Part shown: in pieces, positions 7,525-59,282 of the stretch
Numbering within the stretch: position 1 is the stretch's first letter
Layout: every line of letters starts with the position of its first letter
NCBI GenBank assembly: GCA_903831805.1
Contig: CAIKZD010000009.1
Span: forward strand, 217,939-281,938
DNA length: 64,000 nt
From: an uncultured bacterium
GTDB lineage: Bacteria; Patescibacteriota; Minisyncoccia; Moranbacterales; UBA2206
Reading direction: 5' to 3'
Made by a program: the position numbers and the translations under genes
Notes under the pieces: generated by a model
What the model was told of the DNA's origin: nothing
What the model saw: only the letters and a program-made list of their open reading frames with translations
Database searches by the model: none

Positions 7525-7560
7525 AATTATTTTTATTAGAATTATAAAATTATCATTCTT

Positions 7561-8299: not shown

Positions 8300-8309
8300 T
8301 ATTATTACC

Positions 8310-20649: not shown

Positions 20650-20666
20650 ATTTTAATCATTTATCA

Positions 20667-40196: not shown

Positions 40197-40419
40197 GTAT
40201 TTAAAATAATCATTTATTCAAGATACTGTCTATGTATTCTGCTTTTGTTTGAGTTGATAAGTAGAACCTGACATTAAACTGTTTTATAGTGTTACTTGGA
40301 TTAATTTTATCATAGCTTGCGGCTCCCACTAAGGTTGCTTTCTGAGAAAAATCTCCACTTTTAATGGAATTGCGGAACAAAAAATTTAGGAGAGAAAATT
40401 TTGTTTTCCTTATCGTAAT

Positions 40420-41253
40420 TTATTTTGGTGATTCCAATTTTTTCGCGCCATTACTAGTTAAAAGCGATTTCATTTGAATAATCGCAGTATTATTTAATTT
40501 TAAAATTCGGTCTTGTTGGGTCATTCCATCACGAATTAGCAGTGCGTTGATACTCTCGATATTAGATAAAACCACCAACTGTTCAATTGTGGCATAGTCT
40601 CGAATGTTTCCTTTTAGCTTTGGATTTTTGTCCCGCCATATTTTGGCGGTCATTCCAAATAATGCCATGTTGAGCAAGTCTGCTTCATTGGCATATTTCA
40701 TAATTGCTTGATCCTTCGTTAATTCGTGTGGGATTAGATTATCCTTGATGGCATCAGTATGAATTTTGTAATTGATTTTTGCCAGCGTTCTTTGAAGATT
40801 CCATTCTAATTTTTGCCTGTTATTTTCATCCTCCTTTAATCTCTGAAATTCTTTTATAAGGTAAAATTTGAATTCCGCCGAAATCCACGAGGCAAATTCA
40901 AAAGCAATGTCTTTGTGGGCGAAAGTGCCGCTATTATAGCGCCCTCTCGTGGCAAAAATTCCAATAGCGCCCGTTTTATTGACCCATTGTTGGACTGACA
41001 ATGCAAATCCATTGGCGCCGCTTTGATTTTTAAAGTCACTGAATTCAGTTACTTTAAAACTGGAGTTGTTCATCTTCTCCCATATTCCCATGAATTCAAT
41101 AGCAAAACGAGTGCTCATCCAATGAGATATAACCAGGCCAGCTTCTGAGTTTTTATGTTTAGCTATATCGGTCAAAGAAATATAATCTTCGCTCCTCTGT
41201 TTGAAGACTGTAATATCCATGCCCTCTACATTTATTTTTTGATTCTTTGTCAT
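40420..41253 (-). CDS. KilA-N domain protein (phage-associated)
   Basis: The N-terminal 120 aa resemble the KilA-N/APSES fold (..GTFAHKDIAFEFASWISAEFKFYLIKEF..). Confidence 0.55.
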   Translation of the reverse strand: MTKNQKINVEGMDITVFKQRSEDYISLTDIAKHKNSEAGLVISHWMSTRFAIEFMGIWEKMNNSSFKVTEFSDFKNQSGANGFALSVQQWVNKTGAIGIFATRGRYNSGTFAHKDIAFEFASWISAEFKFYLIKEFQRLKEDENNRQKLEWNLQRTLAKINYKIHTDAIKDNLIPHELTKDQAIMKYANEADLLNMALFGMTAKIWRDKNPKLKGNIRDYATIEQLVVLSNIESINALLIRDGMTQQDRILKLNNTAIIQMKSLLTSNGAKKLESPK

Positions 41254-41262
41254 AAGGTAATT

Positions 41263-41286
41263 ATGGCGAATTCGCCGTAATTAAAA
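41263..41286. promoter_or_regulatory. 24-bp near-perfect palindrome (aattatggcgaattcgccgtaatt) in the KilA-N 5' leader; operator-like
   Basis: 22 of 24 positions are symmetric, lying 10 bp upstream of the KilA-N start codon. Confidence 0.35.
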
Positions 41287-41296
41287 AATTTACTTT

Positions 41297-41399
41297 GTCT
41301 AACGTTTCGGCATATCTGATGTTTGCCGTAGCGTAGCGGAGGCAAATATGGGTGGAGGCTCGCCGGAGGCGAACCGCAACCAGATATGCCGTGTTATGT
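41297..41399. repeat. F3 attC-like element copy a (103 bp)
   Basis: Ends GTCTAAC...GTTATGT on the plus strand (ACATAAC...GTTAGAC in gene sense). Inner inverted boxes ggcatatctg / cagatatgcc. Variable centre. Confidence 0.55.
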
Positions 41400-41475
41400 G
41401 ATGTGCATGTTTTACTTTAATCCCGATGGCAATCGGGATTGCTCTAAAAAAGAATTTTAATTTTGTTTTTTTGTT

Positions 41476-41520
41476 TTGGATTTTGGGCAGAGGGGTTAGG
41501 GGTGAATGCCCAAAATCCAA
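41476..41520. repeat. F1 hairpin element copy a
   Basis: ttggattttgggca-gaggggttaggggtgaa-tgcccaaaatccaa. The stem covaries with copies b and c. Confidence 0.6.
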
Positions 41521-41594
41521 AACTCCTTATTCTGTTTGAGGGAGGGGCAAGAGGGGAATTAAAGGGGTGAATTGCCCCGACCGAAAAAATTCAA

Positions 41595-42095
41595 TTAAAC
41601 TATCAATAAGACAAATAATAAAACTACTAAAACAAACAGGCATTTTGTACTGTTTTTAACATTATTCATTTTTTGATCAGCAATTATCGAGTTTGTATAT
41701 ATTTGCTCTGATATTTGCTTTTTTGCATCTTCTTCTGTTAATTTTTCCATTTCATTAAAATAATCAATCGGTTTTAACTTGGCGACATTTCCAAAGTAAA
41801 AAAGTGATTTATTTGTATTTGTATTTTTCAAACGAGGGAAAACGGAGCTGATTAAAAAGAATATTCCTAAAATAAATAGACCAATAGTTATTATAATTAA
41901 AATAGTATACAGACAAAGACCCCAGTTCTCAAAGTTTGAAATTGAGGAAATCACAATTCCTTTAAATGAAACAGTGCCTAAAAAAATTCCTGAATAATAA
42001 GCAGACAAAAACGCACTTTTTTTATCAGCAGACTGAATCCAGTCGCTAACTCTATTTAATTCATTTTGTAAAAAAGATAATTCTAGGTTTTTCAT
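41595..42095 (-). CDS. small 3-TM membrane protein, candidate effector paired with the cyclase
   Basis: 166 aa with a soluble N-terminal 30 aa, two adjacent TM helices, a roughly 60-aa charged loop and a C-terminal TM. A 3-bp gap separates it from the cyclase gene. Confidence 0.5.
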   Translation of the reverse strand: MKNLELSFLQNELNRVSDWIQSADKKSAFLSAYYSGIFLGTVSFKGIVISSISNFENWGLCLYTILIIITIGLFILGIFFLISSVFPRLKNTNTNKSLFYFGNVAKLKPIDYFNEMEKLTEEDAKKQISEQIYTNSIIADQKMNNVKNSTKCLFVLVVLLFVLLIV

Positions 42096-42098
42096 AGT

Positions 42099-42911
42099 TT
42101 AATTTAGTTTATCTATATAATTATCAGCACAGTGCACACACCAACCAACTTGGGTGTAATAAAATTTGTCTCCAAGCGTATCATCTGAAAAATCAGTAAC
42201 TTCTATAAAAACAGGATTTCTTTGTTCTAAAATGTCGGTATCGCCATTATGGCAGTTATATAATCCGAATTTCGGTTGCGCAACAAAATCTTTGTAGACT
42301 TCCTCAGATATTATTATTGGCGATTTGGCCCCATTAAATTTTTCAGGGGCGTCTTGGAATTGCTTGGATAATTTTGCAGCATTATTAACAAGTCTTCCTG
42401 CCCATACCTCATTATAGTCACCTCTCTTGCCGATCTTTTTGACTAAAATTTTGTCTTTATGGATGCCAATTTTACAACTAAGATTACCGCCTTCATCATC
42501 TTGAAATTTTGTTTTAATCTTTTCTTCAAAAATTTTTCTAAAAGTGATTGATGCGTAAAATGCTTTATACGAAGCATGCTCGCCTTCGTAGATAGCAAAT
42601 GCGCCATCTCCTTTTATATCTACATAGTCAGCACAGAAAGATTCATGATTAAAAACATCAACTAGCGTTTGAGTAAAGTAGTCATAGATCTTTGCCATTG
42701 TGACCGGATGTTTTTTGAATGAGATTTTTGACGATTTATCTAAGTCAACAAAAAGACAAACAAATTTATTATCACCACCAACCCAAGTAGGTTTTTCTAA
42801 GTAAGCATCTTCTTTGATGCTTGAAATTGATTCAATTTCAGCAATTTTAAAATCATCAAAGCGTTTTTCTGCCTTTTCCTTCAATTCTTCTATAAAGTCA
42901 TCAATTTGCAT
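42099..42911 (-). CDS. class III nucleotidyl cyclase homolog (adenylate/guanylate-cyclase fold; Pycsar/cNMP-cyclase-like)
   Basis: Metal-binding motifs CLFVDLDKSS (F.D..GFT-like) and VDIKGDGAFAIYEG (iGDa-like), plus VWAGRLVNNAAKLSK matching the conserved VWGd.VN.AaR transition-state region. Confidence 0.65.
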   Translation of the reverse strand: MQIDDFIEELKEKAEKRFDDFKIAEIESISSIKEDAYLEKPTWVGGDNKFVCLFVDLDKSSKISFKKHPVTMAKIYDYFTQTLVDVFNHESFCADYVDIKGDGAFAIYEGEHASYKAFYASITFRKIFEEKIKTKFQDDEGGNLSCKIGIHKDKILVKKIGKRGDYNEVWAGRLVNNAAKLSKQFQDAPEKFNGAKSPIIISEEVYKDFVAQPKFGLYNCHNGDTDILEQRNPVFIEVTDFSDDTLGDKFYYTQVGWCVHCADNYIDKLN

Positions 42912-42927
42912 ATTGTTATTATAAATA

Positions 42928-43584
42928 TTATAAATTATCCGTTACTCCAAAAAAATTCTTAATTATCGGATACTCTTGTTTTAAAAAGTATCTTCCCGAC
43001 TCGTTGTCTTTGATGAGAAAAAATTGTTTTTTTATACATTCCTCGTCTTCTTCCAAGCAGGCAATGCAAACGATAAAATCAATATGCGGATATTCTATGC
43101 TGACGGCAGTATTTTCTTTCCAGCTTTCTAAGTCTTTGTCATAAGTCCAGCCGAAACGGTTTAAAATTGTCTTTTTCTCAATAGCAGTGTTGTAGCAAAA
43201 CAATCCGCATAGTGGCTTGATGCCAGGGTCAATGGCTTTTATCCTTTCAAAATTCTTGTTCGTCTTTTTTATGTCTGGTCCGGTTGCGTTGGATTTTACT
43301 TCCAAAACTAATTTGCAATGTCGTGGATCAATCATTACTTGGTCGCCCAATGGGGTCGTGGTTGCCGTGGTTTCGTGAAATATCAAATCACATTCTCCGC
43401 TCTGTATTCCGTTTTTGGCGACTATGCCTTTTTTGCCTCGCAACGATTCTTTTCTTTTTAATACCAAATCACGCAAAAAGTCTTCTCGGATTGTTCCTCT
43501 GGGCAAGTGTTGTTGCACAAATTCCGACACTCGATATTGAGCGCGGAGCAGGTCTTCATAGTATTGTGCAAATATCTCGTCCAT
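42928..43584 (-). CDS. hypothetical protein with PD-(D/E)xK-like motif
   Basis: GECDLIFHE ... LVLEVKSN spacing is consistent with a restriction-endonuclease-like core. The assignment is weak. Confidence 0.35.
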   Translation of the reverse strand: MDEIFAQYYEDLLRAQYRVSEFVQQHLPRGTIREDFLRDLVLKRKESLRGKKGIVAKNGIQSGECDLIFHETTATTTPLGDQVMIDPRHCKLVLEVKSNATGPDIKKTNKNFERIKAIDPGIKPLCGLFCYNTAIEKKTILNRFGWTYDKDLESWKENTAVSIEYPHIDFIVCIACLEEDEECIKKQFFLIKDNESGRYFLKQEYPIIKNFFGVTDNL

Positions 43585-43593
43585 ACATAAAAA

Positions 43594-44718
43594 TTACAAT
43601 TCACCCTTAAACGCTTTTTGCATCAAGGCTTGAAATTGGGTTTCGAGTTCGTTGGATTGAGAAAGCATTTTTTGTTTAATTAATTCGGTTTTTTCTTTCA
43701 ATCCGAGATAAATTTTTTGCTCATCAAGACTTGGTACTAATATTTTTATTTTTTTAATAATACCTACATTTACAATTCCCATCGTCCCGCCATGAGATAC
43801 ATCTTTTATTTGTTTCTGTACTGATTGGCTAGTTAATAATTCTTTCAAAAATAACGGCAGTATAATATTTTGATTTGGTGTTATTTTCATTAGACGAGGA
43901 TTAATAATGCCTGGTTCAAATTTTTCTGGCACAACACTAATTTTCCCAAATGTTCCTACTAAGCTTATTAAAATATCTCCTTGTTGTATTTTACAACTTT
44001 CTAAGGTTCGATATCTTTCTTCGTTAATATAATAATCTCCATAATTGAAGTCATCTTTAATAACCTGTTCTTGTCCATATATTTTATAACCTGATTTTAC
44101 ATAAAATTCCTTCTTCAAAGATGAGCCAAATGGACCTGCCTTGATTCCATTTTTTTCTTTAATGGCAACATCATTAATTATTTGTATATTATAATTTTTC
44201 GGATTCTTCACTGGATCCCCAAACATCTCCAAAAACACCGACTTCAAATAATCATCCAAAAGCCCGATGGCTTGTTTTCGTTTTTGGCGAAGCGCGTCCG
44301 CCTCATCAAGAATTTTTACAATGCGTTTTTGGTCTTCGAGCGGTGGAAGTGGGATTATTGGATCAGTTAAATTATTTATCTTTATGTATTTTATAACTCC
44401 GCCAATAGATAATTCTCTTAATTTTTCAACATACTTAAATAAAAACCAATAAAGATATCGGGTATCCAAAACTGATTCGTCTTTACTTTCGATTATATAG
44501 GTTCTTTGATATGCATCGAATTTACCTTCGTAATATTTTACATTTAAATCACCATTTCCAGCCACAAGCACGCACTTACAATCATAAGAATATGAGCTTA
44601 TTTTTAAGGGCTTTTTGGAACAAGTAAAAAAAGGATACTCGCCATCAGGCGAGCTCGCATTTGCATCAAGTTTGCCAGTCCTTATTTTTACAAAATTTCC
44701 AAGTTTATTTTTAATCAT
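43594..44718 (-). CDS. hsdS: Type I restriction-modification specificity subunit
   Basis: Two target-recognition domains separated by the conserved central region (LPPLEDQKRIVKILDEADALRQKRKQA) and a C-terminal conserved helix (LVPSLDEQKIYL). Confidence 0.85.
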   Translation of the reverse strand: MIKNKLGNFVKIRTGKLDANASSPDGEYPFFTCSKKPLKISSYSYDCKCVLVAGNGDLNVKYYEGKFDAYQRTYIIESKDESVLDTRYLYWFLFKYVEKLRELSIGGVIKYIKINNLTDPIIPLPPLEDQKRIVKILDEADALRQKRKQAIGLLDDYLKSVFLEMFGDPVKNPKNYNIQIINDVAIKEKNGIKAGPFGSSLKKEFYVKSGYKIYGQEQVIKDDFNYGDYYINEERYRTLESCKIQQGDILISLVGTFGKISVVPEKFEPGIINPRLMKITPNQNIILPLFLKELLTSQSVQKQIKDVSHGGTMGIVNVGIIKKIKILVPSLDEQKIYLGLKEKTELIKQKMLSQSNELETQFQALMQKAFKGEL

Positions 44719-44720
44719 AA

Positions 44721-46241
44721 TTACAAATTTTTCAAATCACTAAGTCCAGCAACGATTTCTTGCTCCAGCGATTCAATCTTTCCCAAAATCACTTTTGGAT
44801 CTTCGTAAACCATTTCATCGTAATCCGTTACTTTGTAGCGATTGATACTCAAATCAAAATCAGCTTTTTCTATATCACTTTTATTAACATAGAAAAATTT
44901 ACTATTGAGCTTGTTTTCGGTTTGGTCTTTTCTTGTTTTCCATTTCGCCACAATATCCGGCAAATCACCCCCGCCGTTGATCTTGCTTCGCTTGTCGTCC
45001 AATGTGTAGCCGTCGGATTGCATATCATAAAACCAAACCTTTTCAGTTTCGCCGCCTTTTACAAATATCAAAATCGCGGTGCTTACTCCAGCGTAGGGCT
45101 TGAATACTCCGCTCGGCATCGAAATAACGCCTTGCAGTTCACACTCATTGATAAGCATCTTGCGCGCTTGCTTGTGGGCATTGCTAGAACCGAACAGCAC
45201 GCCGTCTGGCACAATCACACCGGCTCGTCCTCCGATTTTGAGGGATTTTATAATGGTATTGATAAACAATAATTCCGTTTTTGTCGTAGCGAGTGAGAGC
45301 GATTCGTTGATGTCGCCCTTATCAATACTGCCTTTGAAAGGCGGATTCGCCATGATGCAGTCATAAAAATTATTCTCGTCGTATTTTTTGGAGAGCGTAT
45401 CTTTTTGTTCGATGTTTGGATTGGAGATGCCGTGCATCATCAAGTTCATGAGTCCAATACGCACCATGCTTTCGTCCATGTCATAGCCGTAGAAAGTTTT
45501 TTCTTTGAGATGCGTCCATTGTCGCTCGTCGGTGAGCTTGTCGCCCAGATCGCCACGCGTCAGTCCGTTTTCATCAGTTTTTCTGTGTTCTTTGCTGGTA
45601 TGTGCTGTGAGAATATGCTGATAGGCACCGAGCAAAAATCCGCCTGTACCACAAGCTGGATCACAAATAGTATCGCCCAATTTTGGATCTACGAGTTCAC
45701 AAATAAGTTGAATGATGTGGCGCGGTGTGCGGAATTGGCCGAGCTTGCCGGCGCTCGTGATTTCTGAGAGCAAATATTCGTAGAGATCTCCCTGGGTGTC
45801 TTGAAAACCTTGTCCGGCCGAATCTTGCTTGGCGATTTCTTCAAAAATATCATCAATAATATTCACCGCTTCCACCAAAAGCGACGGCTTGGAAATGATA
45901 AAAACCGCGTTGCCCATGTGTTTGGCAAAGGGACTTTCTTCTTTGCCGATAGTTTTCAGAAATGGAAAAACTTTAGTTTGAATATGTGTCAGCATTTCGC
46001 CACCTTCCATTTGTCTGAAATGGCTCCAGCGCAAATTTTCTTTGTCATTTCCAAAAAGTGACTTGTACGCTTCTCCGGTAAATTCGGCGTCTTGTCTTTT
46101 CTTAATATCCATCTCGTCCAAGCGCTTCATAAAAAGCAAATAGGAAATTTGCTCAATAGCCGTGAGCGGATTGGATATGCCACCGCTCCAAAATTTATCC
46201 CAGAGCCTGCCAATTGATGATTTGAGTGTTGGATTAAGCAT
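44721..46241 (-). CDS. hsdM: Type I R-M N6-adenine DNA methyltransferase
   Basis: HsdM N-domain, AdoMet motif (DPACGTGGFL) and catalytic NPPF. Confidence 0.9.
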   Translation of the reverse strand: MLNPTLKSSIGRLWDKFWSGGISNPLTAIEQISYLLFMKRLDEMDIKKRQDAEFTGEAYKSLFGNDKENLRWSHFRQMEGGEMLTHIQTKVFPFLKTIGKEESPFAKHMGNAVFIISKPSLLVEAVNIIDDIFEEIAKQDSAGQGFQDTQGDLYEYLLSEITSAGKLGQFRTPRHIIQLICELVDPKLGDTICDPACGTGGFLLGAYQHILTAHTSKEHRKTDENGLTRGDLGDKLTDERQWTHLKEKTFYGYDMDESMVRIGLMNLMMHGISNPNIEQKDTLSKKYDENNFYDCIMANPPFKGSIDKGDINESLSLATTKTELLFINTIIKSLKIGGRAGVIVPDGVLFGSSNAHKQARKMLINECELQGVISMPSGVFKPYAGVSTAILIFVKGGETEKVWFYDMQSDGYTLDDKRSKINGGGDLPDIVAKWKTRKDQTENKLNSKFFYVNKSDIEKADFDLSINRYKVTDYDEMVYEDPKVILGKIESLEQEIVAGLSDLKNL

Positions 46242-49065
46242 AATGTAAAATTTTATTAGTAAATGACAAGATTTCCGTTTGCAACTGCGGAGTGAATAGC
46301 CCCAAGAAACCGCGAGCGTGCAATTTGGTAAATGGCTCGCTAACGAGATCTTTCTTTGTCAGTTCACCATTGTTGATAATAAAATCACGAAGTACAATCA
46401 GAAACTGGATTTGATTTGAAGCCAGTGTGTTATGTTCGGCAATAAATTCAGCAAAAGCCTCCGAGACTTTTTCGGAAAAAGTGACGAGTCCGCCAATACC
46501 CATAATGTATTTAATCAAATCCAAAAACTGTACCTTGCGGGCATCATAGGCTTTTTGCAGGTTCTCTTCGGTTGGATAGGGATCATACTCGTTTAGCGTG
46601 TCAGCCAGTTCTTCCACTTCTTCCTGCGTAATATCTGCACCTTGTTTTATTTTCTGCAATATTTTGTTTTCTGCTTCCAATTTTTTCACCAGCGCCTCAA
46701 CTTTTTCACGATATTTTTTGATAGTAATGCGTTCATGCGCCGGACCAAATTTGATAAATTCTTTTTCGCTTGTTATATCGCGTAAATCCAGAGAATCTTG
46801 GTCGGGCTTGATGCCTTCTTCGCGATATTTCATCAATGGAGCGATTTTTTGGATCAGAATTTCTAAGGCATTTTCATCGGCTTTTTCAAGATAGCCATTA
46901 TTCAATATCTCTTCTATCAGTTCTTTCTCTTTGACGACAACATTCACAGACAACGGCAAATCAGACACCATTTCAATAATTACTTCCGCAAGAGTTTTTA
47001 CCTTTTTATCTTGACCATCTTGTTCATCAAGTTTGGCGATGGAATAATATAAAACTTTAAGTTCAAAGCTCATTGCCTTGTAGTCTTCGCCGGTTCGCGT
47101 GCGCATAAGTGGCGCGATTTCCTTTTCTAAAAATAGTTTTTTATCTTCATTAAGTTTTTGCCAAAAGGTTTCATCGACTTTATCAATCTTGCTTTTTGCG
47201 TCCAAAATAACCACATTGTTTGGTGGAAGTTTGGCAATATCTTCTTTTAATTTTTGAATGGTATTCTGTACAAGCTCAGCATTATTTTGCGCTTCAGCCA
47301 GATTGAGTTTTTGTAGTTTAGTTTCAAAAAGACGGACAGGCAGCGGTTTTGATGGCTTATCTATTTTTCCGGTTGGGTTCATTTGAAAATATTCAAAATT
47401 TTCCCAACAATCAATGATAAGGAATTTATCTTTTACCTTGCACCATGGCTTTATTTTCTTAGCTTCCAAAAGTCTTGTTCCTCGCCCGATCATCTGCCAA
47501 AATTTGGTATAAGAAAAAACTGGTTTTACAAAAACAAGATTGACGAGTTCGCGCACATCTATACCAGTATCAAGCATATCCACGCTAATGGCGATGCGCG
47601 GAAAGTCTTTATTAACAAATTGATCGAGCAGACCGCCTTTTCCATAAACACGAGAATCGTCCGAAACGATAACTTTGGCAATATTGCCTTTATGTTCAGG
47701 GTAGAGATCATCAAAAACTTCTTGTAATCTTCGTGCGTGCTTCATCGTCATGGCAAAGAAAATAGTTTTGCCGGGCAGAGTTCCACTTTCGTCTTTTATG
47801 CACGATTCCATAAACTCTTGCACGATAAGCGCGTTCGTTCCTTTGTTGGTTACTTTTTTCTCAATTTCACTGCCATCATAATTTATTTCTGTTGGCTCTT
47901 TGCCGTCGGCAAGTAATTTTTGTTGTTCGGCAATGGTAATATTGTCTTTTCTTATTCCTTCTTTTTGGAATTTGGTGCGAACTTTTAGAACTTCAAAATC
48001 TGAAAGATATGGGGGCTTATTGTTTATCGCTTCCTCGTATGAGTAGGCATAAGTCGGTATGCCGTCTTCACATTCAAAAATACCAAAAGTATTATGCTCA
48101 ATCGCATCTTTTGGCGTAGCAGTTAAACCAAGCTGAACAGAATCAAAATAATCAAAAATATTTTTGTAAACATTGTAGATTGACCTATGACTTTCATCTG
48201 CCACAATCATGTCAAAAAAATGAGGACTAAGCGGACAGTCTTTATCTTCAATGATATTGAGCATTGTCGGATAAGTAGCACAATAAATTCGTCTATCCGT
48301 TACAATGTCATGCTCGCCGACTTTTGGCCAAACCGGAGCGTTTGGTAAAAATTCTTTAAAAGCATCAAGAGCTTGATTTCTAAGTGCGATTCTGTCCACT
48401 AAAAACAAAACTTTTTGCACTTTGTTTGCTCGCATCAACGACTCAATCATTGCCACGCAGGTTCTTGTTTTTCCGGTACCTGTTGCCATTACAAGCAATG
48501 ATTTTCTCTTTCCTTTGTCTAAGTTTTCAAAAACTGAGCGGATAGCCTCGATCTGATATGGTCGTCCAGCAATGTCTTTCTGGATTAATTCTTGGGAAAG
48601 TGGTTTCTCGTTTTTGCGCAAAAACAACATTCTTTCTAAATCTTTTTTTGTTGGAAATCCGTACACTTTGCGGGGTGGATATTTTTCAGTATCCCAAAAA
48701 TAAATATCGTGTCCGTTTGTATAAAAAACGAATGGCATATCCTTACCAGAATTTTTCTGAATATTTTCGGCATATTGACGGGCTTGTTCTTGTCCGACCC
48801 TCGCATCCTTCGAGGTTTTTTTTGCTTCTACAATTGCCAAAGGATAACCACTATCTCCAAGTAAGGCGTAATCAGCAAATTGAAAGCCTTGATATTCGTG
48901 TTCCGGCTCCTTAACCCCTTCTGGCAAGCCAATCCAAATATCAAGCTCGGATGTAACTTGTGCTGGATCATTAACTTTCCAGCCGGCTTTTGCGAGCCTT
49001 CCATCTATAATTTCTTGTCTTGTTTGTGCTTCAGTTTTTGTCATAATTATTTTCAAGTTAAACAA
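46234..49065 (-). CDS. hsdR: Type I R-M restriction subunit (SF2 helicase + nuclease)
   Basis: Typical HsdR N-terminus (TEAQTRQEIID..AGW), Walker A GTGKT and DEAH-box IVADESHRS. 943 aa. Confidence 0.9.
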   Translation of the reverse strand: MFNLKIIMTKTEAQTRQEIIDGRLAKAGWKVNDPAQVTSELDIWIGLPEGVKEPEHEYQGFQFADYALLGDSGYPLAIVEAKKTSKDARVGQEQARQYAENIQKNSGKDMPFVFYTNGHDIYFWDTEKYPPRKVYGFPTKKDLERMLFLRKNEKPLSQELIQKDIAGRPYQIEAIRSVFENLDKGKRKSLLVMATGTGKTRTCVAMIESLMRANKVQKVLFLVDRIALRNQALDAFKEFLPNAPVWPKVGEHDIVTDRRIYCATYPTMLNIIEDKDCPLSPHFFDMIVADESHRSIYNVYKNIFDYFDSVQLGLTATPKDAIEHNTFGIFECEDGIPTYAYSYEEAINNKPPYLSDFEVLKVRTKFQKEGIRKDNITIAEQQKLLADGKEPTEINYDGSEIEKKVTNKGTNALIVQEFMESCIKDESGTLPGKTIFFAMTMKHARRLQEVFDDLYPEHKGNIAKVIVSDDSRVYGKGGLLDQFVNKDFPRIAISVDMLDTGIDVRELVNLVFVKPVFSYTKFWQMIGRGTRLLEAKKIKPWCKVKDKFLIIDCWENFEYFQMNPTGKIDKPSKPLPVRLFETKLQKLNLAEAQNNAELVQNTIQKLKEDIAKLPPNNVVILDAKSKIDKVDETFWQKLNEDKKLFLEKEIAPLMRTRTGEDYKAMSFELKVLYYSIAKLDEQDGQDKKVKTLAEVIIEMVSDLPLSVNVVVKEKELIEEILNNGYLEKADENALEILIQKIAPLMKYREEGIKPDQDSLDLRDITSEKEFIKFGPAHERITIKKYREKVEALVKKLEAENKILQKIKQGADITQEEVEELADTLNEYDPYPTEENLQKAYDARKVQFLDLIKYIMGIGGLVTFSEKVSEAFAEFIAEHNTLASNQIQFLIVLRDFIINNGELTKKDLVSEPFTKLHARGFLGLFTPQLQTEILSFTNKILHYA

Positions 49066-49082
49066 TGTTATTGTATTCGTTT

Positions 49083-49155
49083 TCCCCTTATAAATAAATC
49101 GTTTTCGTAGCGTAGCGGAGAAAACACCTTATACCCCTTTCTAAATAAATAAAAA
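49083..49155. repeat. F2 shared promoter/leader element copy a (immediately 5' of hsdR)
   Basis: ccccttataaataaatcgttttcgtagcgtagcggagaaaacaccttatacccct; near-identical copies lie 5' of the 429-aa gene and the GIY-YIG gene. Confidence 0.5.
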
Positions 49156-49217
49156 ACAAAATTCAAATTCTTTTTTTGAGCTGGGCGATAGCCCAAAAGT
49201 AAAACATGCATTTCACA

Positions 49218-49585
49218 TAACGTGCGCGGATAATCCGAAGTAGTCGGAGGGAAATTCATTTCCCGACGGCTATTTCGGATATCCGCTGATATCCGATGTG
49301 TCGCAAGCGAAGCGAAGCGGCACAGAGGGTATCGGCGGAGGTATCCGCGCACGATATTCAAAATGGAGCAAGCGTAGCGCGCGACATTTTGGATATCGTT
49401 TACGCATCATCTGAAGTTTTCATCCCGACTTTGCAGGATAAACTTTTGATTTCAAACAATGCTTTATTAAATTATCTCCGCCTAAACCTTCATCTAAACT
49501 AAAGGATGAAAATTTGGGCGGAGGGAAATTGACACTCCTTGAATCGCTTTGGTCAATTTCCTGTAGCCAGATATGCGTTGTTAGG
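49218..49585. repeat. degenerate F3-like copy (49218..49300) plus F3 attC-like copy b (49397..49585)
   Basis: Copy b ends ...cagatatgcgttGTTAGGC on the plus strand (GCCTAAC in gene sense) with the inner box cgcatcatctg. The upstream degenerate copy has gcggataatccg / cggatatccgc boxes. Confidence 0.45.
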
Positions 49586-49639
49586 CGATGAAACTAAAAA
49601 TTTCCTTTCCTAATAATAAAGAATTTTTGGCAATTTTAT

Positions 49640-50353
49640 TTAAAAACTCTTTCCATCTTCGTTATGACAACCATTCTCATTGCAAGTAAGTATTTTGCCA
49701 GATGATGTTGTAGCACAATACTGGAAAGTCGCCTCATTGCCATTGCGCCTTACAAAGAATTCACAACCACCCCATTTACCACCATCAATCTCAAGATTAA
49801 GCCAGACCTCTTTTACTGCGCTATTCTGACACACAGACAATCCTGTTTTTGGCTCAAGTAGATACCCACCATCATCCACACAGAGGCTAGCATCTGGCCA
49901 TAGAAATTGAATCTTATCTTCTATAATTTTATCATTTATATCATTCATGTATGCAGCATTAACAATTTTAGCAGCGCGCTCCTCGCCAATATATTCACTC
50001 AATTTTTTATTTTTTTCTTCTTTGAGCGAAGAACTATCATTTTCATCAGAAAGAAGGTTCACGGTAGTTAGCTCAACCAAAGAGATTGCGCATGATTCAT
50101 CCTGTGATTGTGCCATCGCCATCATCGCCCGCTCTCTTTTAACTTCATATCGAGTTATATGGATATAGTCAATATTATCAGCCACGAATTTTTCATTAAG
50201 CTTCTTCTTAAGCGCTGTGGCTTGTTCACAAAGATTATTCTTCACCACACTTTCACTTTTTTTATCCAATACTTGAGCTGTTGGCTGTTGACCACACCCA
50301 GCCAAAAAGACTACTCCAAACAGCACTGAACTTATTGCTATTACTTTTTTCAT
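49640..50353 (-). CDS. lipoprotein, Cys-rich C-terminal domain
   Basis: Signal peptide with lipobox (FLAGC). 237 aa, function unknown. Confidence 0.6.
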   Translation of the reverse strand: MKKVIAISSVLFGVVFLAGCGQQPTAQVLDKKSESVVKNNLCEQATALKKKLNEKFVADNIDYIHITRYEVKRERAMMAMAQSQDESCAISLVELTTVNLLSDENDSSSLKEEKNKKLSEYIGEERAAKIVNAAYMNDINDKIIEDKIQFLWPDASLCVDDGGYLLEPKTGLSVCQNSAVKEVWLNLEIDGGKWGGCEFFVRRNGNEATFQYCATTSSGKILTCNENGCHNEDGKSF

Positions 50354-50461
50354 AATTATTTTTTTGTTAATTTATTAAAAATTATTATTAGAACGAGTTG
50401 CCGACCGAGCAAAATTGCCAAAAATTCTTTTCAAAATAGATAGGAAATTTTTAGTTTTTTC

Positions 50462-50611
50462 GCCTAACGTTACTCATATCTGAAGTTTTTGTCTTCCTTC
50501 CTTAGTGTAATATATAAAGAAAAAGAAGGCAAAAATTTGGGTGGAAGAAATTTGCACTCCTTATTATTAGTTATTGATGCAAATTTCTGTAACCAGATAT
50601 GAGTTGTTAGA
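50462..50611. repeat. F3 attC-like element copy c (150 bp)
   Basis: GCCTAAC...GTTAGAC terminal boxes. Inner boxes ctcatatctg / cagatatgag are compensatory relative to copies a and d. Confidence 0.55.
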
Positions 50612-50679
50612 CGATGTAAATTTATTTTCTTTTTTAAATCCGCTTTTTATTCTAAATAGATTAAATAAGTTTTTTTGTT

Positions 50680-50724
50680 TTGAATTTTGGGCAGAGGGGT
50701 CAGGGGTGAATGCCCAAAATTCAA
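50680..50724. repeat. F1 hairpin element copy b
   Basis: ttgaattttgggca-gaggggtcaggggtgaa-tgcccaaaattcaa. Confidence 0.6.
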
Positions 50725-50758
50725 AACTCCTTATTACAATTTTTCCGTAACATTTTAT

Positions 50759-52048
50759 TTATTTTTGTTTGTCGGTTAAATTTTGTATCACAGCTTGATT
50801 AACTCTATACATATCCAAAATATTTTTTTCTAATTCGCTTAAATTAGAGATTATATTAATATCGTCTAGGGCATCAAGAGGTTGAGTGATTTGAATAGGA
50901 TTATTGTCACGTGTGCCAATATTTAGCTTTAATAATCCGTTTTCTACATGAGCATCAATTTCGTGCATTGGCCAACGTGTTTGTGCAACTTCTTTTGTGT
51001 TATATTTATGATTTACATCCTCATAGCCAATATATAATGCATCGACTCCAAAGGAGCTTCCGTTTTCACTTTGATATTGTATATACGCAACACGACCGTT
51101 AGAACCTTGGACTGGTTTTGACAATGAAATTTTGTCGTATCCCATGACGATCGCTCTATTTTTTATTACGTCGACATAAAGCTTGCGTCCAATCTCGGTG
51201 CTGATTTTTGAAAGTTCTCTTGCAAGCTGTGCTTCTTCGTGTGAAATGTTTTTCCTAACAGGAGGGGTTAATTTCTCCGACATATCTTCTCTAATTTCTG
51301 AATTGTATTCGAAGGAAAGCATAATATTCTTCGCCTGGTCTCTGAGTGACACACCATAATCTTCTGAGATGAAAGTGTGGCCTCCGTGCGACAAGCTACT
51401 AAACACCTCGGATAAATTATCCACACTTTCCTTATATATTTTCTCCACTTGCTCAATGTTGGATAATTTTTGAAGACTTTTGATATTCATCATTTCTAGG
51501 TCTGCGATTACTATTTTCATATCAACATCGCTCCCTTTTTTTGGAATAACTACAAAAAAGGCATCGAATCTAATTTTGATACCGTAAAGAGCTGCTCTTA
51601 TAAGATCGTGGTGTATATCCTCAAGGGCTTGCACAAAGTTTGTAATTGATTCGATTTTTTCATCTCGACTCTCTTTTATTTTGTTATGTGCAAGGGCGAT
51701 GTTATTGCCAGCATTAAAATCAGTCATTGCGATTTCATTTTTGCCAATTGCTCGAAATGTAGTAGGTATGTGTTTTAATCCAATTATTTTTAATGCACTA
51801 TACACATCAATAGCAACATCACGATTGTAATTACATTCTTCCGCATCATAACCACGAAAATATTTTAGAACTAAATTCATCTCTCTAAAATTTTCGCCTC
51901 GTTCAACACGAGCTACGACACGAGAGATGTTTCCTACATTAGCAAAGCTTAAATTAGGATTATCTATGGGGTCTTCCTCCTTTTTGATTGAAAATTCAGT
52001 TTCCTTGCCACTGCTATGAGAAGCAATTTTGGTTATTCTTTCGAACAT
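50759..52048 (-). CDS. hypothetical protein with weak protein-kinase-like motifs
   Basis: 429 aa. HHDLIRAALYG (HxD catalytic-loop-like) and KIVIADLE (DFG-position-like). Speculative. Confidence 0.45.
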   Translation of the reverse strand: MFERITKIASHSSGKETEFSIKKEEDPIDNPNLSFANVGNISRVVARVERGENFREMNLVLKYFRGYDAEECNYNRDVAIDVYSALKIIGLKHIPTTFRAIGKNEIAMTDFNAGNNIALAHNKIKESRDEKIESITNFVQALEDIHHDLIRAALYGIKIRFDAFFVVIPKKGSDVDMKIVIADLEMMNIKSLQKLSNIEQVEKIYKESVDNLSEVFSSLSHGGHTFISEDYGVSLRDQAKNIMLSFEYNSEIREDMSEKLTPPVRKNISHEEAQLARELSKISTEIGRKLYVDVIKNRAIVMGYDKISLSKPVQGSNGRVAYIQYQSENGSSFGVDALYIGYEDVNHKYNTKEVAQTRWPMHEIDAHVENGLLKLNIGTRDNNPIQITQPLDALDDINIISNLSELEKNILDMYRVNQAVIQNLTDKQK

Positions 52049-52077
52049 GTTTATATTATCTCAAAATATTAATAAAT

Positions 52078-52185
52078 TCGTTTTCGTAGCCTTAGCGGAG
52101 AAAACACCTTTTTCCCCTCTATAAATAGATAAAAAAAACTTATTTTTCCTTATTATAAAAAGCGAATTTAAAAAAGAAAATAAAT
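52078..52185. repeat. F2 shared promoter/leader element copy b (extended homology to copy c)
   Basis: cgttttcgtagccttagcggagaaaacacc...ataaaaaaaacttatttttccttattataaaaagcgaatttaaaaaagaaaa. Confidence 0.5.
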
Positions 52186-52192
52186 TTATTTC

Positions 52193-52319
52193 GTCTAACG
52201 TTAGGCATATCCGAAGTTTTTCTGTAGCGTAGCGAAGGAAAAATTTGGGAGAGAAAATTTTGCTTTCCTTATTTTATTATAAAGTGCAAAATTTTTGAAC
52301 CGGATATGCCTTGTTATGT
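52193..52319. repeat. F3 attC-like element copy d (127 bp)
   Basis: GTCTAAC...GTTATGT on the plus strand (ACATAAC...GTTAGAC in gene sense). Inner boxes aggcatatccg / cggatatgcct. Confidence 0.55.
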
Positions 52320-52387
52320 GATGTAAAATTCTTTCTTTTTTCTTTTTTTAAATTTGCTTTATAAATGATAAATAAGTTTTTTTGTTT

Positions 52388-52431
52388 TTGATTTTGGGCA
52401 GAGGGGTAAGGGGTGAATGCCCAAAATCAAA
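52388..52431. repeat. F1 hairpin element copy c
   Basis: ttgattttgggca-gaggggtaaggggtgaa-tgcccaaaatcaa, followed by a second G-rich-loop hairpin at 52448..52500. Confidence 0.6.
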
Positions 52432-52471
52432 AACTCCTTATTCTTAAACAAAAAGGCAAAAAGGAAGGGGT

Positions 52472-53992
52472 TTAAGGGGAGGGAATTTTTGCCTTTTTGT
52501 TTTCTTTCACCAATTTACTCATTTTTATTTTTGGAGATATTCCTAACTCAAAACATTTTCTTGCCCACGATTCAATCTTTTGTTTTAAAATTATAGAATT
52601 AATTTCGGATATTTTTTTAGGTAAATTCTTATTTTGGATAACTAACCAAATGCAATAATTTTTAAAATCAATATCAATCTTTTTTGTGTTCGCTTTTTTG
52701 CCGATGAGTTCTAATGTATTGTTTGCTTGATCACAGACATAACCTAATTTTTGAGCAGTTCCAAATTTTACGGCATAAACAGTTTCGCCCTTTTTTGAAT
52801 CCCACGCCTCAACTAGCGTTCCAGCTTTAACCTTAATAATTGAAAAGTTTTTATCGGCATCAGAATATCCATGTTCTTTTAGACTTTTATTAAAATCACC
52901 TTCTATGCCAGTAATTTCAAGTAAGTCATTTTCAACTTCATCCAGATCAATGCTATCGATGTATTCGTTTAATTGATCCATATAGTCCTCATTAAATTTC
53001 ATCCACTTACCTTGCGTTAGAAGGACATTTTGATCATCAATAATATAATCTATCGATTCTTTTACAGTTTTAGAAAACGGCTTAGCATCTTCCTTGATTA
53101 TATGAACCCTTATACTGAGAATTTGCTCCTTGGGAATGGAATTCGTTGATATAAAAGTATTTAATCTATCGATTGTAAGTTCTTCGAATTCAGCCGATGT
53201 AAAACTGTCTAAGGAAAATTTATATTTTTCCTGTCCAGAGAAAATAAAATCAATTCCGATAAGCTCATGACTATTTGAAGTGAAATCTGTGCTATCTTTT
53301 GAGGCAATAATCTCTTCTGCTAATTTATTTTCATACCCAACTGTTATAGGGGATGTATCAAGAATGATTGTTCGCGGTAATTTAAATAATTCAGGAGATT
53401 CATAAACTTTAATTATTGATTCTAAAAATTCTGGCAATGCTTCTTTCTCAACTAGTGGACTTAGTAATGAAGAAGAACCAAATTTACCTGACTTGCCAAA
53501 ATTTTCTATAAAATCTTTAGAAATAGATGATTGTAAATAATCGATAGATTCACCACTCTCAATATCCAGTTGGCTATTTTTTGTATAACTTTTTATTTCT
53601 TTTTTCTTTTTTCCCGCGAATTTTTTTGACGATTTTTGTCTGATATCTTTTTGATTCGCAATTCTTTTGGCTATATGAATGCCAAAATCATGATCGCAAA
53701 ATTGTCGTAGATAAAAATGCGATTTCCCATAGCTTAATGCAAAACAATATTTTTCATTTTCCCAAATATAAGCGCAAAAGTAGATTCTATTTTCGGGCTT
53801 ATCTTCGTTGAAAAAATCTTTGTATGTTTCTGCCCACGGAATTTGAATCGGATCAATATCTTTGGAAAAATAAAAATCACCTTTCCAGCCTTTTTCTTCG
53901 CTCGAGTTAATATTTTTAAGTCCTAATGATTCAAATTTATCTTTTAAATCATTGACTTTGTCTTTTGGAATTTTAAAAATATTTAGCTTCAT
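52472..53992 (-). CDS. hypothetical 506-aa protein, last gene of the type IIS R-M operon (resembles the sporadically distributed TIGR04141-like family from memory; unverified)
   Basis: No catalytic motif recognised. Separated by a 6-bp gap from the REase candidate. Confidence 0.5.
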   Translation of the reverse strand: MKLNIFKIPKDKVNDLKDKFESLGLKNINSSEEKGWKGDFYFSKDIDPIQIPWAETYKDFFNEDKPENRIYFCAYIWENEKYCFALSYGKSHFYLRQFCDHDFGIHIAKRIANQKDIRQKSSKKFAGKKKKEIKSYTKNSQLDIESGESIDYLQSSISKDFIENFGKSGKFGSSSLLSPLVEKEALPEFLESIIKVYESPELFKLPRTIILDTSPITVGYENKLAEEIIASKDSTDFTSNSHELIGIDFIFSGQEKYKFSLDSFTSAEFEELTIDRLNTFISTNSIPKEQILSIRVHIIKEDAKPFSKTVKESIDYIIDDQNVLLTQGKWMKFNEDYMDQLNEYIDSIDLDEVENDLLEITGIEGDFNKSLKEHGYSDADKNFSIIKVKAGTLVEAWDSKKGETVYAVKFGTAQKLGYVCDQANNTLELIGKKANTKKIDIDFKNYCIWLVIQNKNLPKKISEINSIILKQKIESWARKCFELGISPKIKMSKLVKENKKAKIPSP

Positions 53993-53998
53993 GCTTAT

Positions 53999-55516
53999 TT
54001 ATGCGGTTACTTCATTTAAAGAGGTTTTCATCTCAAGGCTATTAACAAATTTATCAATATTTGAGATTCTCACTTCCAAACCATCTTTTTTGATAAAATC
54101 AAAGTAGCGTTCGGTATCAATAAAAGATTTTGGCGAGATAAACACGGAATATGATTTTGTGCCTTTTTTTACATATTCTTCAAGGTGTCGATGTATAGAA
54201 AACGACTCTCTGATATGCTGTTGCGTTCCAGTCAGTAAAGTTACTTCGATCAAAACTGTGTCTTTTTCTTCCAAACATTCAATGTCGGGGCTTCCGCCAG
54301 ACGCAAAACTTGTTGGCAAGCCTTCATCGTCGGATATGAAATTAGGTTTTACGATAACATCTGGTAATTTTTTGAGGATTGCCAATGAAGTTAAAAATTC
54401 CAATCGTAATGGTTGCTCAATGACTTTCAAAATATTATCGCTAGAAGATTTTTTCTGTGCCAAATTAAGAAGTTCGGTTTTAATTGAATCCCAAGCATAA
54501 TGATCAACCCATTTTTCCAATTCTGCCTTTGTGGTTTTCGCTGGTGCTCCAAATACGGTAAGCGTTGAGATTAAATCGTGGTCGACTTGTCCGATATACT
54601 CAAAAAATTCTTTTTCCGTTTCAAATTCTTTGTAGGAAATATAATTTTTTAAAATATAATCAACGGTTGTAGATTCTTTTGAGTTTATATCTATAAAACG
54701 ACCACCGCCACGCAAAGAAAGTAAGCCAGTTAAACGCATTTTTCGTATAAAATCGTCAGGATAATCACCAAGGATTGAATTATCATCTCTCTTTGTTTCG
54801 TTTAGCAATTCATAGCAAAGATCTAAAATTACTTCGTTGCTCGGTGTATAACCATGTTTTTTGCGTAATTTTTTAATTTCTCGATATAAACTTTCAGCGT
54901 TATCGTTTTGCCAACATAGCAACAATGGTATTTCCGATCTGGATATACCAGCACCCTTGTATGCTGGGTCATTATTCAAAAGTTTTATGGTTTGTATAAG
55001 CAAAATAAGCGGAACATTTTTATTTAAAACGCGACGAAATGGATTTTGGCGTTGATATTTTGCAAAAGCATTTGCAAAAACCATTAACTCATTTTCTGGC
55101 TTTTCTTTGTCCAATAACATCTTTCCGCTTTCGGAAAATTTTATTTCTTCATTTTGCCAATACCAAACAAAACCAAGTTCTTTGGCAATTTTAAACCAAG
55201 TATCAAATCTTGATGGCCATCCTTTTTCAAACCCTGCTTCTTTGTGGCTTTGAGGGTTGTCGGAAAATACTTTTTTGGTTTCAGTTTCGCTTAATTCAAT
55301 CTCATTTTTCCATTTATCTTTTACAGCCGAAGTTACTTTCATGGGTTGGTATAATCCTTTTTGAATTAAGGATTTGGCGACTTTATCAATAATTTCGTTT
55401 GTTAAAATTTCGCCGTCATATTCCGCAAGTACGGTCAAAAAATCCTTCAACCGTTCAGGATTCCTCATTGTTGTTGTAAATAGCAATGGTTTGTATTCAG
55501 ATTGTCGTTTAGTCAT
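53999..55516 (-). CDS. AlwI-family (type IIS, MlyI/PleI/N.BstNBI-like) restriction endonuclease candidate
   Basis: N-terminal LLFTTTMRNPERLKDF resembles the AlwI-family N-terminal motif. The C-terminal SPDIECLEEKDTVLIEVTLLTG resembles the family's PD..E..EVT catalytic region, as recalled for N.BstNBI. It lies adjacent to two Dam-class methyltransferases. Confidence 0.55.
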   Translation of the reverse strand: MTKRQSEYKPLLFTTTMRNPERLKDFLTVLAEYDGEILTNEIIDKVAKSLIQKGLYQPMKVTSAVKDKWKNEIELSETETKKVFSDNPQSHKEAGFEKGWPSRFDTWFKIAKELGFVWYWQNEEIKFSESGKMLLDKEKPENELMVFANAFAKYQRQNPFRRVLNKNVPLILLIQTIKLLNNDPAYKGAGISRSEIPLLLCWQNDNAESLYREIKKLRKKHGYTPSNEVILDLCYELLNETKRDDNSILGDYPDDFIRKMRLTGLLSLRGGGRFIDINSKESTTVDYILKNYISYKEFETEKEFFEYIGQVDHDLISTLTVFGAPAKTTKAELEKWVDHYAWDSIKTELLNLAQKKSSSDNILKVIEQPLRLEFLTSLAILKKLPDVIVKPNFISDDEGLPTSFASGGSPDIECLEEKDTVLIEVTLLTGTQQHIRESFSIHRHLEEYVKKGTKSYSVFISPKSFIDTERYFDFIKKDGLEVRISNIDKFVNSLEMKTSLNEVTA

Positions 55517-55520
55517 AATT

Positions 55521-58231: not shown

Positions 58232-58233
58232 AA

Positions 58234-59082: not shown

Positions 59083-59119
59083 ATTTTATCTAGGTCAAGT
59101 AATTGAATTATATCAGTTT

Positions 59120-59245
59120 TCCCCTTATAAATAAATCGTTTTCGTAGCGGAGCGGAGAAAACACCTTATACCCCTATATAAATAGATAAAAAAACTTATT
59201 TTTCCTTATTATTAAAAAAGCAAATTTAAAAAAAGAAAAAAGAAA
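59120..59245. repeat. F2 shared promoter/leader element copy c
   Basis: ccccttataaataaatcgttttcgtagcggagcggagaaaacaccttatacccct...ataaaaaaacttatttttccttattattaaaaaagcaaatttaaaaaaag. Confidence 0.5.
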
Positions 59246-59282
59246 GAATTTTATTTCACATAACTCTTTATATACGAACTGA

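Follow-up and report, generated by a model that had tools for sequence, protein, structure and literature searches.

F1 is a hairpin with a G-rich loop that occurs three times in a stretch of 64,000 nucleotides (nt) of contig CAIKZD010000009.1, from an uncultured bacterium of the Moranbacterales (Patescibacteriota). This whole stretch is called the window below. The three copies lie in a low-GC island, an integron-like array of cassettes that is read from the minus strand and filled with defence genes. Very probably, F1 is the outermost stem-loop of a conserved cassette-end module of 255-320 nt that is found across the Candidate Phyla Radiation (CPR)/Patescibacteria. On the sense strand of the cassettes, this module consists of a stop codon/AATAAGGAG, the F1 hairpin, a spacer of ~70 nt and an attC-like palindrome. 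F1 is a widespread stem-loop for which no earlier description was found; the literature search, which returned neither the F1 loop nor integron-like arrays of CPR bacteria, was incomplete, and a prior description is possible.

Each copy in the window is 51 nt long and is made of a 17-bp stem and the 17-nt loop GAGGGGTNAGGGGTGAA. The three copies, with their scores in the F1 covariance model, are located as follows.

41473-41523, plus strand: F1#1, arms 41473-41489 and 41507-41523, loop GAGGGGTTAGGGGTGAA, trailer of cassette c5, 95.5 bits.
50677-50727, plus strand: F1#2, arms 50677-50693 and 50711-50727, loop GAGGGGTCAGGGGTGAA, trailer of cassette c2, 93.7 bits.
52384-52434, plus strand: F1#3, arms 52384-52400 and 52418-52434, loop GAGGGGTAAGGGGTGAA, trailer of cassette c1, 92.0 bits.

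An earlier note on this DNA had placed three copies here, and a search with the 35-nt pattern TTTTGGGCAGAGGGGTNAGGGGTGAATGCCCAAAA (inner stem and loop) finds exactly these on the plus strand of the window (41481-41515, 50685-50719 and 52392-52426), compared with 0.00 matches expected from the shuffled window. Run over the 64-kb window with its filters off, the covariance model also returned only the three F1 copies, all inside the array. The identical 17-nt loop of the earlier description stands; its stem of 11-13 bp was too short, the true stem having 17 bp. Covariation was rightly recognized, though at one stem position, where two positions differ among the copies, both compensated (GGA/TCC, GAA/TTC, TGA/TCA): a G-C pair is replaced by U-A in F1#3 and by A-U in F1#2. 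The stem is A/T-rich. Both strands fold, with a predicted energy of -23 to -26 kcal/mol and a z-score of -3 to -5.6 relative to shuffled controls. The hairpin is part of an 81-nt repeat (family D1) with conserved flanks. On the plus strand, the 5' flank is a T-run and the 3' flank is CTCCTTATT, in line with the conserved 3' flank already described. Also in line with that description, every copy lies 3' of a minus-strand operon, behind the last minus-strand open reading frame (ORF) of its gene block, with 74, 34 and 40 nt between stop codon and stem. A known RNA family was discarded as an explanation: Rfam gave no match to F1 at the gathering score, and only noise (E>2) at a permissive threshold.

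Two other hairpins are found next to F1 in the window.

41544-41578, plus strand: hairpin A, GGGGCAA / GAGGGGAATTAAAGGGGTGAA / TTGCCCC, in tandem with F1#1, a weak match to the covariance model.
52448-52500, plus strand: hairpin B, a 15-bp stem rich in A/T and a G-rich loop of another sequence, GGAAGGGGTTTAAGGGGAGGGAA, with a T-rich run behind it on the plus strand.

Judged by its sequence, hairpin A is a short-stem member of the F1 loop family, and long-stem relatives with an identical AATTAA linker were found in other loci. The final 29 nt of ORF 52472-53992 lie within hairpin B, which is also found beside F1 in many loci.

The family was then defined across genomes. One genome per species was scanned with the F1 loop and its closing pair, at least 119 stretches matched, and 119 distinct copies from other genomes were aligned. 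Among the matches listed, almost all hosts are CPR/Patescibacteria, including Parcubacteria lineages, Microgenomates, Peregrinibacteria, Gracilibacteria and Saccharibacteria; a few F1-bearing bins are labelled as something else. A phage origin was rejected, as viral contigs searched for F1 gave zero matches. Of all stem cells in the 119 copies, 93.4% are paired, compared to 52-54% after a shift of the partner by one column. Double-sided changes occur at 15 of the 15 variable stem pairs. The alignment contains 158 compensatory cells versus 26.7 in shuffles, and none of 500 shuffles reaches the observed number. This covariation strongly supports selection on the stem for pairing, as the earlier note had proposed from a sample ~40 times smaller.

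The loop is bipartite. It starts with AGAGGGG (the last G is not present in all copies), continues with a linker of 1-7 nt and ends with GGGGTGAAT. The non-G positions A-GA...TGAAT are also invariant, and the one base that varies in the common loop, N, can be T, C or A but is never G. These blocks stay fixed while stems, linkers, spacers and flanks diverge widely, GC-rich lineages included, and 65 distinct stem haplotypes carry the loop unchanged. The covariance model identified ~25 further, diverged copies within the loci, always co-oriented with the primary copy, and the G-blocks are retained in them despite differing stems and linkers. The loop is conserved independently of the stem.

The position of F1 is tied to that of the recombination site. 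The attC-like sites were identified by manual reading, predicted folds and a family-specific detection rule, which replaced generic palindrome scans that were too noisy or too strict. Under the strict rule, such a site lies upstream of F1 on the G-rich strand in 83 of 144 copies, against 7 of 165 for the downstream side and 0 of 144 after shuffling. The spacing between attC and F1 has its mode at ~70 nt. Asymmetric attC-like sites are co-oriented with F1 in 132 cases versus 20 in the opposite orientation, and ~61% of them carry F1. The attC-like site, the spacer and F1 form one conserved block of 255-320 nt; the example at 52186-52445 is 87-95% identical in unrelated bins, in which the genes differ. 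In all 17 of 17 loci, the G-rich strand of F1 is the sense strand of the recombinase gene. For 111 of 113 copies, the sense strand of the cassettes has F1 at the 3' end of the neighbouring ORF, and a multi-gene cassette has one F1, behind its last gene. The median gap from stop codon to stem is 12 nt, with a gap of at most 25 nt in ~65% of the copies, and in ~25% the TAA of the conserved AATAAGGA|G flank is itself the stop codon. In the remaining copies, the stop codon is 66-120 nt away and hairpin A or B lies in between. The structure of F1, its conservation, its context, its polarity and its behaviour as part of cassettes are all direct observations.

The array extends from attI (~59262) to a decayed attC at 40375-40422 and has a GC content of ~30-39%, compared with ~44% in the flanks. 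Its intergenic regions contain imperfect palindromes of 100-150 nt, which show integron-type boxes when read on the minus strand and which the earlier note had listed as F3 elements. The components are given from the recombinase to the distal end.

59342-60178, plus strand: tyrosine recombinase, 278 amino acids, IntI/XerA-like, divergent from the cassettes, at the head of the island.
59255-59277, plus strand: attI-like core, CACATAAC|TCTTTATATACGAAC, conserved beside the recombinase gene in 17 loci.
40420-59082, minus strand: cassette genes, all ORFs on the minus strand.
59083-59254, minus strand: leader of cassette c1, homologous in inverted orientation to the F1 trailer; its sense strand has the G-motif GGGGTATAAGGTG and the hairpin GTTTTC..GAAAAC.
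Cassette c1, genes: PDC-S14/DUF4357, a RadC-Dam fusion, Dam, AlwI endonuclease, DUF6119.
52195-52320, minus strand: attC-like site of cassette c1, R'' CACATAAC, R' GTTAGAC; its inner arm is the D8 short motif.
52060-52194, minus strand: leader of cassette c2, D7 family.
Cassette c2, gene: a protein of 429 amino acids with no assigned function.
50462-50612, minus strand: attC-like site of cassette c2, R'' GTCTAAC, AA, L'' CTCATATCTG ... L' CAGATATGAG, TAAC, R' GTTAGGC; its inner arm is the D8 short motif.
Cassette c3, gene: a protein of 237 amino acids with no assigned function.
~49395-49587, minus strand: attC-like site of cassette c3, R' degenerate (GATATCC in place of GTTRRRY), no F1 before it.
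49214-49335, minus strand: ORF-less attC-like palindrome, which ends in GTTATGTG and marks the start of cassette c5.
49040-49213, minus strand: leader of cassette c5, D2 family.
Cassette c5, genes: type I restriction-modification (R-M) system (HsdR/M/S), PD-DExK, Pycsar PycC and PycTM.
41298-41399, minus strand: attC-like site of cassette c5, R'' CACATAAC, L'' GGCATATCTG, L' CAGATATGCC, R' GTTAGAC.
Cassette c6, gene: KilA-N.
40375-40422, minus strand: decayed terminal attC, of which the inner hairpin alone is left, fused to TAAGGA behind the KilA-N ORF; distal end of the array.

The degenerate R' at 49395-49587 suggests local decay or an unusual junction. Between two attC-like sites, at 49214-49394 on the minus strand, lies a unit without any ORF. 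In cassette c5, the type I R-M system and Pycsar are combined in a single 8-kb unit with no internal attC.

The cassettes behave as those of an integron in the matching of their ends. In 16 of 54 cases, the R'' box agrees in all positions (6/6) with the 5' end of the cassette to which it belongs, versus 3 of 54 for the neighbouring cassette, and none of 5000 permutations reaches this. Restricted to informative cases, the ratio is 15 to 2. The rule holds for the window cassettes c1, c2 and c5. This match of R'' to its own end is the signature of circularisable cassettes with a crossover at G|TT. The attI core has the consensus RYRYAAC|TCGTTTATAT(G/A)CGAAC (RYRYAAC|TCGTTTATATGCGAAC) and is found 60-120 nt upstream of the recombinase gene in the 17 loci. 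All 17 have the order attI, (leader), genes, F1, attC. Five other genomes also carry the window's KilA-N cassette, and in four of these it ends with ...TAA..AATAAGGAG-F1-spacer-attC. The species of the window was also encountered in other metagenomes with an identical recombinase and identical first cassettes (L120-L122; ENA ERZ18624148, ERZ27313079 and ERZ18626419).

The short motif that had been reported at 40383-40415 and in the F3 elements is indeed present; it is a family of its own (D8; 40375-40422, 50526-50573 and 52234-52281) and forms the inner arm of attC. It does not occur in every F3 element as claimed, the inner arm of 41298-41399 being different. Like F1, the D8 arm is preceded by AATAAGGA and has a C-rich loop on the sense strand. 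Because of this shared design of AATAAGGA, stem and C-rich loop, F1 and the attC inner arm are taken to be paralogs.

The recombinase aligns with the integron integrase VchIntIA (2A3V) in two segments, query residues 12-183 with chain residues 6-180 and query residues 201-277 with chain residues 241-317, while chain residues 181-240 are skipped. About 43 amino acids of the IntI-specific insertion are missing, and the closest solved relative is archaeal XerA. The TIGR02249 model gives 219.6 bits, in two stretches, below its cutoff of 265, and NF040815 ('XerA / integron integrase') matches above its cutoff. Homologs with 40-58% identity were identified in 17 F1-bearing loci, and 16 homologs are equal in length. 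Integron integrases are defined by an additional IntI-specific domain around patch III (PMC9668308, citing Messier & Roy 2001). As this domain is missing, the array is not a classical integron, and its recombinase may need other cues for polarity. This family of recombinases apparently serves as the integrase in a cassette system that extends across the CPR.

The leaders add a second element to the cassette ends. Over ~150 nt, the leaders of c1, c2 and c5 (sense) are homologous to their own trailers (antisense), including the degenerate loop motif GGGGTATAAGGTG, and each leader fits the trailer subfamily of its own cassette. Leader cores are always found on the sense strand (125 matches in 54 loci), and the first cassette starts with a leader in ~12 of 17 loci. 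Leader and F1 co-occur (odds ratio 7.1, p=0.017), and F1 often occurs without a leader. No clear promoter was seen in the leader. In the predicted fold around the attC at 52195-52320, the trailer pairs with the next leader, which results in an extended palindrome of ~300 nt with F1 at its base.

As for the folding strand, the non-Watson-Crick cells of the stems comprise, read on the G-rich strand, 60 G:T and 21 A:C over all copies, 46 and 21 over distinct haplotypes, and 14 and 4 in well-paired stems (p=0.03). Because G:T outnumbers A:C, the plus (G-rich) strand, which is antisense to the cassette genes and corresponds to the 'bottom' strand, is the likely folding strand, not the transcribed minus strand. 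The strict polarity of F1 and the intron of L048 (below) point to the same strand. Classical integrons fold and recombine their bottom strand (PMC8876359). An attempt to derive the recombining strand from the asymmetry of arm lengths was abandoned, as the classical rule is not reducible to arm length.

A single case of intron insertion was encountered among the 119 loci. In L048 (JAZDOK010000034.1, 525-1215), a complete, ORF-less intron of group IIC type has inserted, on the G-rich strand, exactly where the 3' arm of an F1-type hairpin ends. The hairpin spans 525-556, the intron starts with GUGCAG at 557, the match to RF02003 scores 77.3 bits and domain V lies at ~1144-1177. The surroundings are GC-rich, with no obvious attC. 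Introns of group IIC integrate at DNA stem-loops of terminators and attC sites (PMC4424553). The L048 intron indicates that F1 is exploitable as a DNA stem-loop, and is not proof of its purpose. An origin of F1 as a group II intron fragment was rejected, the D1 hallmark GGTGNAAGTCC being present in L048 alone.

F1 may be an accessory hairpin of single-stranded DNA that belongs to an extended recombination site of the cassettes; this reading, though tentative, is the preferred one. When the bottom strand of a cassette (plus strand of the window, with the G-rich loop) becomes single-stranded, F1 would fold beside the folded attC, and its loop would show the two invariant blocks, AGAGGGG and GGGGTGAAT. 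F1 would then mark the recombination site on one side only, through both its structure and its sequence, and this mark might be read as an accessory or 'arm' site by the recombinase or by a partner protein and could help the polarity or the efficiency of cassette excision and integration. In circular cassettes with a leader, trailer and leader would lengthen the attC palindrome to ~400 nt, with F1 at the base of the stem. From the observed features we infer a function as single-stranded DNA, recognition by a protein and an effect on recombination. Of the roles suggested in the earlier note, that of a recombination accessory site or protein-binding hairpin is still the best one; the array, the attC sites and the module around F1 had not been recognized.

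Several observations weigh against this reading. About 40% of the attC-like sites have no F1, including those of the window cassettes c3 and c6. F1 is frequent but optional, and so it cannot be essential for recombination. The spacing between attC and F1 ranges over ~30-94 nt in divergent lineages. In the 17 loci, the attI region has no G-block, and hence there is no direct link between loop and recombinase; G-blocks in attI as recombinase sites were rejected for the same reason. The G:T excess is modest and stems from copies that are not independent, and the recombining strand is taken from the integron analogy. Furthermore, the close contact of F1 with the stop codon fits a role at the 3' end of the mRNA equally well. 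An enrichment of F1 in the attI-proximal cassette was suggestive, but is confounded by the selection of the loci for F1.

A role at the mRNA 3' end, although rather unlikely, is the strongest competitor. F1 would act in the sense RNA, with a C-rich loop in the cassette mRNA, as a U-tract-independent terminator or insulator, as a block to 3'-exonucleases or as a processing signal, and the cassette (leader, genes and F1) would become an autonomous transcription unit. This agrees with the location of F1 at the 3' end of ORFs in 111 of 113 cases, often 0-25 nt past the stop codon, and with its presence once per multi-gene cassette, after the last gene. The sense-strand hairpin is also very stable (-23 to -25 kcal/mol, z-score down to -5.6), and the tendency of F1 and the 5' leader to occur together (odds ratio 7.1, p=0.017) points in the same direction. 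However, it is an A-run and not a U-tract that follows, although canonical U-tract terminators exist in the genome, and neither termination nor stability needs an invariant 17-nt loop. On the sense strand, the common stem variants are A·C mismatches rather than wobbles (21 wobbles versus 60 mismatches). The proximity of the stop codon is accounted for by compactness alone, as for the R'' boxes of classical cassettes, and the conservation of F1 and attC as a single block is left unexplained. An intrinsic terminator in the strict sense was discarded, given the 17-nt loop and the lack of a U-tract, and the terminator scan calls nothing at F1. Read on the sense strand, F1 is followed by CAAAAAAAC, and read on the antisense strand by CTCCTTATT, so that no U-tract follows on either, whereas canonical ones occur elsewhere in the genome; the earlier conclusion that F1 is not a canonical terminator, drawn for the transcribed strand, is confirmed.

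It is distinctly unlikely that F1 is a hitch-hiking palindrome, i.e., a duplicated and expanded attC inner arm the perfect stem of which is maintained by hairpin-templated repair or gene conversion, with no function of its own. The inner arm of attC and F1 are indeed alike (AATAAGGA, stem, C-rich sense-strand loop, stem), many cassettes function without F1, and quasi-palindrome correction can imitate compensatory change. A neutral relic would be expected to lose its loop first, though, while here it is the loop blocks that are invariant amid diverging stems, linkers, spacers and flanks, and the loop is unchanged over the 65 stem haplotypes. In addition, tandem second copies of the loop family exist, such as hairpin A.

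An antisense RNA is an improbable explanation. Transcription of the G-rich strand would start on the attC side and run into the end of the cassette, and the Shine-Dalgarno-like GAGGGG together with GGGGTGA would bind ribosomes or a C-rich target (e.g., the leader motif), regulating defence or toxin genes. GGGGUGA is complementary, with one wobble, to the conserved 16S 3' tail UCACCUCC, the G:T excess favours the G-rich strand, and 11 of 14 loop positions are complementary to the leader motif on the sense strand. This last complementarity is a trivial result of the inverted homology, however, and hairpin A and F1#2 have no terminator behind them. Moreover, no sigma-70-like promoter was found before F1 on the G-rich strand, and a promoter in the spacer for such an RNA was rejected for lack of a sigma-70-like site, although the consensus is well used in the genome (46 promoter-like sites versus 31±4.6, and 63 versus 33±5.8). 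A bacterial class A RNase P RNA was identified at 20662-21015 on the minus strand (135.6 bits), with a perfect TTGACA-17-TATAAT promoter at 21083-21055, from which it follows that the sigma-70 consensus applies in this organism.

A G-quadruplex or replication-pausing element, in which the G-runs of F1 and hairpin A would form a bottom-strand quadruplex and stalled forks would expose the neighbouring attC as a single strand, is hardly credible: the runs of four G are sharply localized in an AT-rich array, at least four G-runs lie within 35 nt at 41538-41571 and the G-rich strand is constant relative to attC, but F1 alone has two G-runs, held in a 17-bp hairpin, F1#2 has no partner hairpin, and, while the linker of 1-7 nt varies, the invariant non-G positions A-GA...TGAAT are not needed by a quadruplex. 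The G-quadruplex-prone loop of the earlier note is accordingly weak for F1, as four or more G-runs are reached only together with hairpin A (41538-41578).

Coding and core-site readings of F1 were rejected as well. A small ORF or leader peptide through F1 (73 amino acids, 41299-41520, minus strand) exists only in copy 1, and the covariation is incompatible with coding. A mini-ORF behind the Shine-Dalgarno-like AAGGAG has no conserved start codon or frame, and with N being T, C or A its stop is not conserved. The loop as a cryptic R' core (GTTAGGG) needs N=T (73 of 125 copies) and does not work with other linkers. F1 is not attC proper, since its stem lacks both AAC...GTT cores and a bulged R/L architecture and the hairpin lies ~70 nt outside the R'' box.

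Two repeat families of the window are found outside this context. A core-genome family, unrelated to the array (D10/D13/D16; 9891-9950, 22603-22662 and 26120-26179), consists of the paired hairpins TCCCCCTCCCCTG-TATT-CAGGGGAGG followed by GTCCCGTAATCGGGAC-GGAGGGGTTG. An 85-nt direct repeat (D5; 7551-7635 and 8300-8384), with 94% identity and a spacing of 749 nt, possibly represents the ends of tandem paralogous genes.

Integron recombination is the textbook example of a recombinase that reads folded single-stranded DNA, and the IntI-specific domain is regarded as needed for it. The arrays described here show the behavioural signatures of an integron, spread over CPR lineages, without that domain and with an extra strand-specific hairpin. 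If F1 is an accessory element, it would offer an experimental handle on the choice of strand and orientation by a recombinase without the IntI domain, and it would help to explain the exchange of defence systems among genome-reduced CPR bacteria. The defence cargo of the array comprises type I and type II R-M systems, Pycsar and a PDC-S14 candidate. It is possible, if doubtful, that CPR/Patescibacteria share a distinct integron-type gene capture that relies, instead of on the IntI-specific domain, on an extended folded site of 250-400 nt, with F1 as a novel type of accessory or 'arm' element of single-stranded DNA that sets strand choice or efficiency, and by which whole defence systems are moved between phylum-level lineages. 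Pipelines that need an IntI model will miss these arrays, as would surveys restricted to IntI-positive integrons (PMC12259885), and the F1 motif combined with the attI core is a specific marker for them.

F1 has features in common with several known systems. Like intrinsic terminators, it is a stable hairpin right after the last ORF, but it differs from them by the lack of a U-tract on both strands, the conserved 17-nt loop and the A/T-rich stem. Like repetitive extragenic palindromes and bacterial interspersed mosaic elements (REP/BIME), it is a repeated, stable and imperfectly conserved palindrome after genes. In contrast to these, it is not dispersed (3 copies in 64 kb), has a strict polarity and an invariant loop, and is common to phylum-level lineages. 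The abundance of a generic REP-type repeat, which the earlier note had named as the finding that would speak against it, is thus not seen in the 64-kb window, and elsewhere F1 is tied to attC-like sites.

The resemblance to the single-strand initiation (ssi) sites and single-strand origins of rolling-circle plasmids and phages, which are strand- and orientation-specific DNA hairpins with conserved loops, active only when single-stranded, would be by analogy alone, as F1 shows no sequence similarity to them and is not accompanied by replication genes. With the targets of group IIC introns it shares the L048 case, in which the intron lies just after the 3' arm of an F1-type hairpin, in the arrangement typical of these introns. 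The array may also be compared with Xer recombination at the CTX-phi attP(+) hairpin. In both, a recombinase of the Xer type that lacks the IntI domain would presumably use a folded single strand as its site; the array has no evident dif-like 28-bp core. In the cer/psi systems, ~180 bp of one-sided accessory DNA imposes directionality, and the one-sided position of F1 may be analogous to it, although the accessory proteins of cer/psi bind duplex DNA and not a hairpin loop.

The closest counterparts are integron cassettes with their attC sites, including long homogeneous ones such as the Vibrio cholerae repeats (VCRs). Both systems have a divergent recombinase, co-oriented cassettes and an adjacent attI, as well as imperfect palindromes of the R''/L''...L'/R' type with a conserved GTT, in which R'' complements the 5' end of its own cassette. 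In both, the conserved element begins at the stop codon and the cassettes hold defence genes. The array is distinguished by a recombinase without the IntI-specific domain, by a cassette end of 255-320 nt (~400 nt with the leader) compared to 57-141 nt in classical integrons, by the separate F1 hairpin, which has an invariant G-rich loop and no R/L boxes, and by cassettes that are often multi-gene and reach up to 8 kb. Cassettes with folded sites are already known; the recombinase without the IntI-specific domain, the extended cassette end and the CPR-wide family of G-loop hairpins appear to be new.

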